DNA of 64,000 nucleotides from Patescibacteria group bacterium (GTDB taxonomy: Bacteria; Patescibacteriota; Minisyncoccia; 2-02-FULL-40-12; IGHO2-01-FULL-4-A): NCBI GenBank assembly GCA_038064015.1, contig JBBTUB010000025.1, positions 4,632 to 68,631 on the forward strand. Direction: 5' to 3'. A program made the translations under genes and the position numbers. Within the stretch, counting starts at the first letter, position 1. Each line of letters starts with the position of its first letter. The notes beneath the pieces are model-generated. The model ran no database searches, was not told the DNA's origin, and was given only the letters and a program-made list of their open reading frames with translations. Of the stretch, positions 19,804 through 21,450 are shown piece after piece.

Positions 19804-20325
19804 ATGAATGAGTCATTGACAGCGCAGCCGGTAAAAGTTCCTGGCAGATGGGGAGCTGGCATCGTGTCCGTAACTGTCATTCTTTTAGTTATTCTCTATT
19901 TCAAGGGTGAATATCATATTATTCCTTACAATCCCTGCAGTGATTTTGCGATATGTGGATCAACTCTCCTTTGGATTCTCGATATATTATTGGTGGTTGG
20001 TTTTGTGATGCTTTCCCTGTATCTTGCAGATCGCAGAATGCTTCACTCATCTTATACATTTCCGAGGGTAATTCTCATGGCATTCAAATCAATGGTTGCG
20101 ATTATGATTCTGTTTCTAATCATCATTGTCATTCTGGGATTGCGAAATTCTTTTATTGTTGGTGATATAATGTCGATACGTGATGTCGTTTCCATTACCG
20201 CCTTCATATCGGTATTTTATGGAATATGGGCTATACTTGTTGCCGTACTAACGGGTTTTGTTCCCATTCTGCTTTACTATAAATGGCACTTCATTGCTCT
20301 TAAGAATCAGAAAAGTGTTTTATGA
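19804..20325 (+). CDS. Hypothetical polytopic membrane protein (AT-rich)
   Basis: 173-aa ORF with 4-5 predicted TM helices. Its stop overlaps the rpiB-like remnant ATG (ATGA). Confidence 0.45.
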   Translation: MNESLTAQPVKVPGRWGAGIVSVTVILLVILYFKGEYHIIPYNPCSDFAICGSTLLWILDILLVVGFVMLSLYLADRRMLHSSYTFPRVILMAFKSMVAIMILFLIIIVILGLRNSFIVGDIMSIRDVVSITAFISVFYGIWAILVAVLTGFVPILLYYKWHFIALKNQKSVL

Positions 20326-20354
20326 TCTATCTCGCTTCCGATCATCGCGGGTGA
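20322..20354 (+). repeat. Degenerate duplicate of the first 10 codons of rpiB (MIYLASDHRG-stop); direct repeat partner of 21010..21042
   Basis: atgatctatctcgcttccgatcatcgcggg versus atgatctaccttgcttccgatcatcgtggc at 21010. All 4 differences are synonymous third positions. Copy 1 then terminates with tga. Confidence 0.6.
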
Positions 20355-20361
20355 CTGAAAT

Positions 20362-20396
20362 GACTGTTGTAGGGTGTTTGTTTTTGTGGTAGTATT
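20362..20396 (+). promoter_or_regulatory. Putative sigma70-type promoter (TTGTAG-N17-TAGTAT) for the inserted two-gene cassette
   Basis: Sequence match only, 10 nt upstream of ATG 20406. Confidence 0.25.
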
Positions 20397-20405
20397 ATAA
20401 GCATC

Positions 20406-20609
20406 ATGGCTATTGATTGGACAAAACTTTACAAGAATTATAAGGGCAAATGGGTTGCCCTTGAAGATGACGAACTAACCGTGGTGGGAAGTGGTACAAG
20501 GGCCAAGGAGGCTTTGGAAGAAGCTCGTCAAAAAGGATACGACCACCCGATACTTCACCGGGTGCCCAGTGATCTTATTACCTATGTTGGCGGCGCTTTA
20601 GCGCGATGA
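20406..20609 (+). CDS. DUF5678-family small protein
   Basis: MAIDWTKLYKNYKGKWVAL...TVVGSG is the conserved DUF5678 N-terminus. Confidence 0.55.
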   Translation: MAIDWTKLYKNYKGKWVALEDDELTVVGSGTRAKEALEEARQKGYDHPILHRVPSDLITYVGGALAR

Positions 20610-21013
20610 AATTTCGCTATAAAAATTATGGCCATGGAGTTTTGAGGCCCGTAATCCCAATCGTGTTGCGCTCAAGGGGACACTGGCAATCGTACGAGGT
20701 GCTCGTAGATTCCGGAGCGGACTCGTGTGTTTTTGATGCCGATATCGCAGAGGTACTTTCTATACCCATTACAAAAGGCGAACGGAGATACGTTGGTGGA
20801 ATTACCGGATCCGTGGAAACCTATTACGTCCATCCCGTCACGCTCATCGTTGGCGGTTTAGAATATGATATTCAAGCTGGCTTTCTTTCAAATATTGCCC
20901 CAACCGGATATGGTATTGTTGGACAACGAGGCTTCTTTGATCTTTTTGTGGTAAAATTTGATTTACTGAAAGAAGAAGTTGAACTTGTGCCCAGGAAAAA
21001 TAAAAAACCATGA
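20606..21013 (+). CDS. Retropepsin-like (clan AA) aspartic protease
   Basis: VLVDSGADSCVF is a D-S/T-G-A active-site motif, followed by ...GIVGQRGFF. ATGA overlap with the DUF5678 gene. Confidence 0.65.
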   Translation: MKFRYKNYGHGVLRPVIPIVLRSRGHWQSYEVLVDSGADSCVFDADIAEVLSIPITKGERRYVGGITGSVETYYVHPVTLIVGGLEYDIQAGFLSNIAPTGYGIVGQRGFFDLFVVKFDLLKEEVELVPRKNKKP

Positions 21014-21450
21014 TCTACCTTGCTTCCGATCATCGTGGCTATGAGATGAAAGAAAAAATCAAGCAATGGCTGACGGAAACTGGCCGGGCGTATGAAGATT
21101 GCGGCCCGGATCATTTTGATAAGGATGACGACTATCCGGATTTTGGTGAGCGCGTCGGGCGCAAAGTGGCGGAATCGCCCGAACATCGCGGGATTTTGCT
21201 CTGCGGTTCCGGCATCGGCGTTGCCGTAGCGGCCAATAAAATTAAAGGTATTCGAGCGGGGACGTGCGTGACGCCAGAGCAAGCCGAAACCGTGGTCATC
21301 CATGATCATATCAATGTGCTTGCCTTGAGTACGGACTACGTGAATGAGGAAACGAACAAAAAAATCATCGATGCTTTTCTCGGGGCGCAATTTTCTGACA
21401 AAGACCGCTATGTAAATCGAGTAAAGAAAGTACAGAAGCTTGAACAATAA
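21010..21450 (+). CDS. rpiB: Ribose-5-phosphate isomerase B
   Basis: MIYLASDHRGYEMKEKI...LLCGSGIGVAVAANK is the RpiB/LacAB family. Confidence 0.9.
   Translation: MIYLASDHRGYEMKEKIKQWLTETGRAYEDCGPDHFDKDDDYPDFGERVGRKVAESPEHRGILLCGSGIGVAVAANKIKGIRAGTCVTPEQAETVVIHDHINVLALSTDYVNEETNKKIIDAFLGAQFSDKDRYVNRVKKVQKLEQ

Follow-up and report, generated by a model that had tools for sequence, protein, structure and literature searches.

How can a small foreign module come to lie directly against the start codon of a housekeeping gene and leave that gene with a working 5′ end? This question is raised by the rpiB locus of the 64-kb stretch of DNA analysed here (the window, to which coordinates refer unless another locus is named), from a groundwater Patescibacteria genome of the Hainich H51 well. 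The first ten codons of rpiB are present there twice, and between the two copies lie a promoter-like site and two small overlapping genes, one for a DUF5678 protein and one for a retropepsin-like aspartic protease. As a whole, the observations presented below are best explained by a mobile cassette that arrives together with the end of a donor gene and displaces the native end, an explanation which we consider reasonably probable.

The arrangement had been described in a sequence-only reading, and the duplicate rpiB start, its coordinates and its four wobble differences were confirmed by re-reading the sequence and its open reading frames (ORFs). The left copy, a displaced rpiB 5′ remnant (20322-20354, + strand, as for all features of this region), is composed of ATGATCTATCTCGCTTCCGATCATCGCGGG followed by TGA and encodes MIYLASDHRG in 10 codons. 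The right copy opens the rpiB ORF at 21010 (21010-21450, 146 aa; Pfam LacAB_rpiB, E 5.5e-44; NCBIfam PRK05571, 157.6 bits with a cut-off of 135), and rpiB nucleotides 1-37 (21010-21046), the present working 5′ end, are within a block 90% identical to the related locus L009. Comparison of 20322-20351 with 21010-21039 gave 26 equal bases out of 30, with all four differences at third codon positions and the same peptide encoded by both. When a 2-nt indel is allowed, the similarity of the left copy to rpiB possibly extends to about 20363 (~42 nt). A 26-mer of the left copy, with up to 3 mismatches, was found at these two sites only in the 64 kb and had 0 matches in 100 shuffles; the rpiB start pair also has the highest percent identity among the short-range direct repeats of the window.

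The insert between remnant and rpiB (20355-21009) is 655 nt long. It begins with a leader (20355-20405), followed by the DUF5678 gene (20406-20609, 67 aa, first of the pair; Pfam PF18929, 31.9 bits with a cut-off of 23.2, E 1.2e-7) and the protease gene (20606-21013, 135 aa; Pfam Asp_protease_2, PF13650, 29.3 bits with a cut-off of 24.3, E 1.5e-6). The earlier assignment of two overlapping small genes, the second with a D-S-G-A motif, was thus borne out, both Pfam matches being above cut-off and LVDSGAD being present in the protease. ATGA overlaps of 4 nt occur at three successive junctions: between the stop of an upstream membrane-protein ORF and the ATG of the remnant, between DUF5678 stop and protease start, and between protease stop and rpiB ATG. 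The leader carries a -35-like TTGTAG (20367-72), a 17-nt spacer and TAGTAT (20390-95), with TG one base 5′ of this hexamer, forming the extended -10 TGGTAGTAT (20387-95). This promoter-like element is present as the sequence-only reading had it; a generic consensus promoter scan does not list the site, which matches at 7 of 12 positions, and its support as a promoter is comparative, since a -10-like box is found at the corresponding position in most of 62 related cassettes.

To understand what was inserted, we examined rpiB loci of the closest RpiB relatives (74-77% protein identity to window RpiB). In four of them (L091/L092, L093 and L094) there is no cassette: TrxR (thioredoxin reductase) is followed directly by rpiB with an ATGA overlap and a single copy of the rpiB start, and L091 also keeps the upstream synteny RRM-Grx-SOD-PMT-TrxR. 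The empty site anticipated for an insertion was thus found. Because the TrxR gene overlaps rpiB in these empty sites, the sequence comparison indicates that TrxR|rpiB is the ancestral state and that window positions 19802-21009 are all additional. Four unrelated rpiB loci without the cassette came from a scan of metagenome DNA for the rpiB start; as closer empty sites they were uninformative.

The additional DNA includes the membrane ORF itself (19804-20325, 173 aa, multi-pass), located between TrxR and the rpiB remnant. The overlap of this gene with the remnant had suggested that rpiB originally followed it; the overlap is real, but relatives have rpiB after TrxR. The ORF has no Pfam or NCBIfam match, matched only itself among 5.8 billion proteins, has a GC content of 38.7% compared to 49% for the window, and is missing from the relatives L009, L091, L093 and L094. 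As judged by its lack of homologues and low GC, it is probably a separate foreign insertion; it may represent a second insertion at the same junction or may have arrived along with the cassette. The 10-codon remnant, coupled to the membrane ORF by the overlap, ends immediately in TGA. At the other side, the rpiB ATG shares bases with the protease stop, the same overlap that it has with the TrxR stop in empty sites, and no terminator-like site was listed by a scan between the cassette promoter and rpiB. For these reasons rpiB is now probably co-transcribed with the cassette, driven by its promoter and translationally coupled to it. The possibility that the leader is a decayed TrxR 3′ end was also considered; a collinear match of 21/34 was found, which is not significant (p about 0.19) and serves as a lead only.

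Is the cassette younger than the genomes that carry it? The most informative comparison is with L009 and L010, from another Hainich well, whose protease is 96% identical to that of the window. Their gene order is Grx-SOD-PMT-TrxR, DUF5678-protease, a 37-40-nt rpiB start (ATGATTTACCTTGCTTCCGATCATCGCGGGTATGAGA) and an MNT/HepT pair. In blastn, window positions 20384-21046, from the -10 box to rpiB nucleotide 37, align with L009 4040-4702 at 90.2% identity, while the flanking genes are 78% identical. Synonymous divergence (dS, Nei-Gojobori) between the window and L009 was 0.40-0.56 for the two cassette genes, 1.3-1.4 for Grx and TrxR, 1.8 for PMT and saturated for SOD, making the cassette about three-fold younger than its flanks on this scale. 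The GC content at third codon positions (38-43% in the cassette, 52-59% in flanking genes) fits a foreign origin. Since the cassette is far closer in identity and dS than its flanks, the comparison indicates horizontal movement after the window and L009 genomes split, the same junction being hit in both, and we consider it very probable that the cassette is mobile and was acquired by horizontal gene transfer.

The MNT (Polbeta nucleotidyltransferase)/HepT pair (L009 4666-5276, L010 1095-1867) has its own TGATAGCAT -10 box and follows the rpiB remnant, which stops at nucleotide ~37-40. HepT is followed by a gene (MDSDDIQPVQ...) other than rpiB, and there the contig stops. As MNT/HepT also sits after the L009 rpiB remnant, the rpiB start appears to be a hot spot for at least two unrelated cassettes. 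No shared site was detected between the DUF5678-cassette leader and the L009 MNT/HepT leader, their alignment being no better than that of shuffles (p = 0.27).

We then considered the gene pair across the family. Protease homologues (57-70% identity) number 467 in a word index, among them Colwell-, Magasanik-, Azam-, Sungii-, Davies- and Kaiserbacteria and others, and an exhaustive profile search with the protease gave about 800 clusters at E<=1e-10. In a scan of one genome per species 307 loci were confirmed, of which the best 80 were kept for locus counts. A DUF5678 gene is immediately upstream of the protease gene in 80/80 of these loci, from many Patescibacteria lineages, so that the check for recurrence of the pair elsewhere had a positive outcome; the 4-nt overlap between the two genes is found in 42/52 loci. 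The partnership seems to be old, because L054 carries, at 6580-7168, a second and highly divergent pair composed of DUF5678 and a D-T-G-A protease. Two DUF5678-protease cassettes are also found within 3.5 kb in L051 (4001-4402 and 7114-7517), a single-cell genome.

Pairwise comparison of loci delimits the unit. Homology restricted to the cassette, with flanks lacking detectable homology, was observed for L029/L034, L026/L029, L070/L080 and L059/L080, and in L054/L061 the cassettes are 93% identical and the flanks 68%. The block common to locus pairs starts 2-44 nt before the DUF5678 ATG and stops at or just past the protease stop. In L054/L061, a small ORF with a CxxC motif (MVKRRSACGLCKPHKKW..., about 4396-4503, - strand) lies just 3′ of the protease gene and appears to travel with the cassette in this lineage, because it is within the 93%-identical block. 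In 32/60 cassettes a -10-like hexamer has its end 6-8 nt ahead of the start codon, a TG extension being present in 25/60, and window TGGTAGTAT fits this family pattern; an SD-like (Shine-Dalgarno-like) motif upstream of DUF5678 was found in only 5/62. In the window the -10 ends 10 nt ahead of the DUF5678 ATG and there is no Shine-Dalgarno sequence. The closeness of the -10 to the ATG and the near absence of Shine-Dalgarno sequences suggest that the DUF5678-protease mRNA is probably leaderless or nearly so.

None of the usual mobility features was detected. The 655-nt insert has only two ORFs, with no integrase, transposase or recombinase domain in Pfam or NCBIfam, and the region 19500-21800 has no known RNA family at E<=1. 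No terminal inverted repeats of the cassette were found, a 16-nt pair (81%) around the two ATGs being judged due to chance. There is no attC-like site and, as the protease stop overlaps the rpiB ATG, no 3′ non-coding DNA; no intI appeared among the listed ORFs or the gene calls inspected up to about 4 kb from the cassette. Several known types of element were discarded on these grounds. An integron gene cassette was ruled out by the lack of an attC palindrome and of intI nearby, and an insertion sequence, transposon or miniature inverted-repeat element by the lack of terminal inverted repeats and transposase and by the variable length of the duplicate (21-86 nt). A single distant match (41% identity) among 2.9 million viral contigs, and none in PHROGs, indicates that the cassette is not typically phage-borne.

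Is the duplicated gene end specific to rpiB? To identify duplicates at other loci, the 500 nt 5′ of DUF5678 were aligned against the interval between -40 and +400 relative to the protease stop, with a score threshold of 40. This score was reached in 21/78 loci compared to 1.5% of 743 pseudo-cassettes set at other positions of these loci, for which most matches were tandem paralogues. All duplicates inspected cover an end of a host gene, which may be 5′ or 3′ and on either strand. The 5′ end of the downstream gene is duplicated in the window (rpiB), L042, L078, L037, L087 and L055, the 3′ end of the upstream gene in L038/L066/L068, L069, L059, L080, L053, L090 and L081, and equivalent ends of opposite-strand genes in L035, L017 and L060. 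Duplicated ends include the rpiB 5′ end, the 5′ end of an HMA protein gene and 3′ ends of several other host genes. In the 18 loci retained for codon analysis, aligned repeats are 21-86 nt long and 70-95% identical. The end of the left copy, which is the host stop codon for 3′-end targets, is 19-58 nt ahead of the DUF5678 ATG, and in most loci the start of the right copy lies between 5 nt ahead of the protease stop and 17 nt past it. Strongly conserved motifs such as MIYLASDHRG, GMHCGG and ADLHLHSKYSRA are encoded by the duplicated segments. The initial proposal of a mini-cassette which integrates at the 5′ end of rpiB therefore holds for the mobile cassette but not for the target, since insertions are found at 5′ or 3′ termini of many genes on either strand.

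The L065 cassette is inside a ribosomal-protein operon, between rplE-like and rpsN-like ORFs (labels assigned by eye). Direct repeats of 143 nt (L065 3310-3452 and 4436-4576) bracket a 79-aa gene together with the cassette, and a further repeated tail is present after each unit.

One could ask whether the locus reflects any mobility, rather than an artefact of assembly or an ancient local rearrangement passed on vertically. The source is indeed a metagenome-assembled genome, and in the L038/L066/L068 clade cassette and flanks are about equally diverged. Independent assemblies agree, however. The same arrangement was observed on all contigs returned by exact-protein look-ups from ENA, Logan and NCBI assemblies, covering several H51 runs and replicates, and no cassette-free variant of the same population was among them. 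The NCBI assembly L006 differs from the window at 2 bases in 8831, none of them in the cassette. Because several assemblies agree and L006 is base-identical across the cassette, the rpiB arrangement is not an assembly artefact, and a short-contig artefact is disfavoured because the L042 duplicate is on a contig of 894 kb. Vertical inheritance fits neither the three-fold younger dS of the cassette nor the cassette-only homology between unrelated contexts. As judged by these sequence comparisons the non-mobile explanation is effectively refuted, its probability being next to nil.

Where, then, do the two copies come from? Among 308 aligned codons from the 18 loci, 194 are the same in both copies, while 67 show synonymous and 47 non-synonymous differences. 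By codon position, the nucleotide differences number 30:22:91, 91 of 143 being at the third, and include Ser AGT/TCA and AGC/TCT and Leu TTA/CTT switches. A true long target-site duplication at insertion, whose identical copies later diverge in place, has a precedent: restriction-modification (R-M) modules have been described as inserted with long target duplications of variable length and without a mobility gene, mostly in naturally competent species (Nobusato/Furuta/Kobayashi; PMC2853133). The cassette resembles them as a small selfish module without transposase or integrase, bracketed by direct repeats of variable length of which one copy is present in the empty site. R-M repeats range from tens of bp upward and often cover gene 3′ ends, and the window repeat (30 nt, ~42 nt with the indel) matches the operational definition of that study, although it is borderline for the >30 bp limit (PMC2853133). 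The nature of the differences does not fit, however. The repeats of R-M modules are 95-100% identical, whereas those of the cassette are 70-95% identical with a strong synonymous bias, and the cargo is DUF5678/retropepsin instead of R-M; the identity and bias argue for two orthologous sources rather than one duplicated target. Under a null model with duplication at insertion, after which the remnant decays neutrally and the working copy changes only synonymously, the simulated third-position share was 0.43±0.035 (maximum 0.55) compared to 0.64 observed, and the synonymous share 0.29±0.04 (maximum 0.41) compared to 0.59 observed; 0/400 runs reached the observed values. Since drift fails to give these shares, both copies would, during the greater part of their divergence, have belonged to functional genes and been subject to purifying selection. 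On this evidence, import of a gene end from a diverged donor appears to explain the bias and plain long target duplication does not; we regard the latter as improbable.

Consistently, the L059 remnant is closer to the gene of a relative than to its partner copy. The non-functional right copy of L059 is 84% identical to the working gene end of L070, with a perfect run of 27 nt, and only 74% to the working end of L059 itself, a pattern predicted by displacement of the native end and arrival of the working end with the cassette. It is thus probable that the two flanking copies derive from different orthologues, in other words that the gene end travels with the cassette. The suggestion of the sequence-only reading that the cassette supplies a replacement gene end is favoured by the reach of the L009 block to rpiB nucleotide 37, by the synonymous bias in 18 loci and by the L059 remnant, which fall short of proof.

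The route that we propose is as follows. The cassette consists only of a short extended -10 promoter with translationally coupled DUF5678 and protease genes, set tight against a host start or stop codon. Entry at an orthologous site would bring the donor version of the gene end, which would become or stay the working end and leave behind, across the cassette, the native end as a short orphan. The TrxR|rpiB junction of the window would have been opened, with 20322-20354 as the orphan and the cassette ATGA-fused to rpiB; orphaned gene ends were observed at 18 or more loci as well as in the window. DNA from relatives would be taken up and recombined through short, highly conserved homology in the gene end, while the other end would be joined illegitimately, as in homology-facilitated illegitimate recombination (HFIR), with no need for a cassette recombinase. 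Integration of the HFIR type is, tentatively, the most likely of the routes weighed, ahead of Campbell-type integration or a recombinase acting in trans, plain target duplication and, last, mobility encoded by the cassette.

Several observations weigh against this picture. About two thirds of loci have no detectable duplicate. In the two pairs of loci with recent transfer, the high-identity block ends 22-37 nt to the left and 37-107 nt to the right of the cassette, with no long donor tract into host genes; because the blocks stop so close to the cassette, any homology anchor must be very short. Natural competence of the Patescibacteria hosts is assumed. The L009 rpiB-start copy shows 3/31 differences from the window left copy and 3/37 from the right copy, so that either window copy may be the imported one, and the outgroups L091, L093 and L094 are too diverged to polarise the four wobble differences. 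In the L038/L066/L068 clade, the conservation of remnants equals that of working ends, and each remnant is closest to its own partner copy, which could reflect gene conversion, repeated replacement, or selection on a function of the remnant, for example as promoter or terminator for the next gene. Of the orphan 3′-end copies of L038, L066 and L068 (right, about 4401-4491), two still have an open frame, and this conservation is unexpected for neutral remnants. Finally, the L009 copy is a mosaic, sharing TAC CTT with the window right copy and CGC GGG T with the left copy, and a crossover inside the 14-nt identical core GCTTCCGATCATCG fits it as well as HFIR does. The other of the two readings of the mosaic is that of two independent homology-anchored events with different crossover points.

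The mosaic leads to site-specific or Campbell-type integration, in which a circular cassette with the gene-end segment as an att-like site would be integrated by a trans-acting recombinase or RecA, giving two reciprocal chimeric copies, in the manner of phage 21 and e14 in icd. The window copies can be read as exact reciprocal chimeras of the L009 type (TAC CTT...CGC GGG) and a native type, with the crossover in GCTTCCGATCATCG. The remnants also end similarly, the L009 rpiB match stopping at nucleotide ~37-40 and the window left copy at ~31-42, and high-identity blocks end near the duplicated segment without reaching into the host gene. Nevertheless, there is no integrase in or beside the cassette, the targets differ widely and the duplicates (21-86 nt) show no common core, no hairpin or att-like motif is common to the leaders (as in the leader alignment above), and a homology of 14-37 nt is near or below the usual RecA minimum. 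This route seems unlikely.

Alternatively, mobility could be encoded by the cassette, DUF5678 and/or the retropepsin-fold protein constituting a minimal homing or recombination machinery for conserved gene termini. The pair is strictly kept in 80/80 loci and is the entire common unit, and insertions lie exactly at start or stop codons with no other mobility function linked. However, the protease has a canonical retropepsin fold and D-S-G-A motif without nuclease or recombinase similarity, and the unrelated MNT/HepT pair occupies the same kind of site in L009, which points to a generic, host-level route. A self-mobilising cassette is therefore extremely improbable. The bolder conjecture that the pair is the engine of a recombinase-free homing element of ~0.6 kb, copying in the cassette and a recoded gene end in a gene-drive-like manner across Patescibacteria, is very improbable.

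What might the two proteins do? In the protease, D35-S36-G37-A38-D39 is invariant in 28 homologues. Its AlphaFold2 model has a pLDDT of 90.5 (predicted local distance difference test), and the top Foldseek matches in the PDB were HIV-1 protease, the Ddi1 RVP domain, Rickettsia APRc and XMRV protease (probability 1.00, TM up to 0.70). The invariant motif and the confident model with retropepsin matches make it likely that the protein is an active dimeric aspartic protease. It is not a member of the TIGR03698 subfamily (17.1 with a cut-off of 57.35). Fold and D-[ST]-G-A active site are shared with Ddi1 RVP and with Rickettsia APRc (PDB 5c9f), but APRc is membrane-anchored and not paired with DUF5678, and identity is only 15-25%. 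Invariant residues of DUF5678 include W5, Y12, W16, D22, E23, P48, P54 and G62, and its C-terminal tail P-x-x-L-x-x-Y-V-G is conserved. A DUF5678 profile search of the PDB gave nothing below E = 0.8, thus no solved relative, the single-sequence AlphaFold2 model was poor (pLDDT 55), and the full-text literature searches found DUF5678 mentioned in a single paper, on an unrelated subject.

The organisation of the cassette resembles that of type II toxin-antitoxin (TA) systems: two small co-directional genes (about 65 and 130 aa) with a 4-nt overlap, their own promoter, patchy horizontal distribution and divergent copies. A selfish addiction or defence module is suggested by the small first gene with a coupled second gene and a private promoter, by the patchy distribution, by multiple copies (L051, L054) and by TA neighbours, namely MNT/HepT in L009 and L021 and an HTH/Gp49-like (helix-turn-helix/Gp49-like) pair in L054. 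The latter HTH antitoxin/Gp49-like toxin pair (L054 4527-5193, - strand) is directly beside the main cassette and is missing from the syntenic L061. In such a module the role of effector would fall to the protease, with DUF5678 as its inhibitor or substrate. This interpretation, which rests on analogy, has to face several contrary points. Unlike in type II TA systems, neither protein is in a known toxin or antitoxin family, and there was no TA family among the Pfam, NCBIfam, PHROGs and PADLOC matches of the pair. DUF5678 has no recognised DNA-binding domain, the only defence-database match was weak (PDC-M08B, E 1.7e-4), and we know of no toxin that is an aspartic protease. A TA-like or defence-like function is thus a candidate that we put at slightly less than an even chance.

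How does the cassette compare with other elements that replace gene ends? Prophages 21 and e14 in icd carry an alternative, mostly synonymous end of the target gene, which keeps the gene intact and leaves the native end at the far junction. The cassette shares the substitute, mostly synonymous gene end and the native end at its far side; unlike these elements, which measure kilobases and have a tyrosine integrase and a defined core, it is of 0.65 kb, without recombinase or common core. A second parallel is the displacement of Rhs/CdiA C-terminal ends and of type VI secretion system (T6SS) effector-immunity modules, where an old gene end is orphaned beside the incoming module, the incoming DNA is anchored in a conserved stretch of the resident gene, and repeated events lead to arrays at hot spots; HFIR has been proposed for the displaced gene ends in T6SS and Rhs arrays (PMC5361080). 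Variable toxin domains are displaced in those systems, whereas here the ends belong to housekeeping genes, the incoming end encodes nearly the same protein and a two-gene cassette forms the separate cargo. Insertions with long target duplication and the displacement of gene ends are thus known already, and the cassette is best described as a variant of both with an uncharacterised DUF5678/retropepsin pair as cargo.

Two further features of the window were recorded. The PMT-like glycosyltransferase gene (17579-18853, - strand) carries an in-frame TAA at codon 42 (window 18719, 18728-18730) where relatives and L006 have Tyr (TAC). Both base differences between the window and L006 fall in this gene, as a nonsense variant of the population or an assembly error. 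Direct repeats of 34 nt, 82% identical, at 40983-41016 and 42528-42561 surround a three-gene block, and another pair is found at 41052-41075 and 42788-42811. As judged by eye, the ORFs of the block are one of 131 aa that may be HAD-like, one carrying a GIY-YIG-like motif and one of 176 aa that may be NUDIX-like. The start of the first gene is matched once more, though less well, farther downstream, and the block may be another insertion with flank duplication.

For Patescibacteria, whose tiny and tightly packed genomes have few recognisable mobile elements and whose acquisition of accessory genes is poorly understood, these results show that foreign modules can be placed right beside essential genes and leave them intact, apparently without the help of a dedicated recombinase. 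The scar left behind, diverged and mostly synonymous duplicates of a gene terminus around a promoter and two genes, is a footprint that can be searched for. The DUF5678-protease pair itself is a candidate for a new toxin-antitoxin or defence family with an aspartic-protease effector. If the HFIR route is true, conserved gene ends would serve as portable landing pads across deep divergence, and the scar could be used to date and trace horizontal gene transfer in uncultivated lineages.

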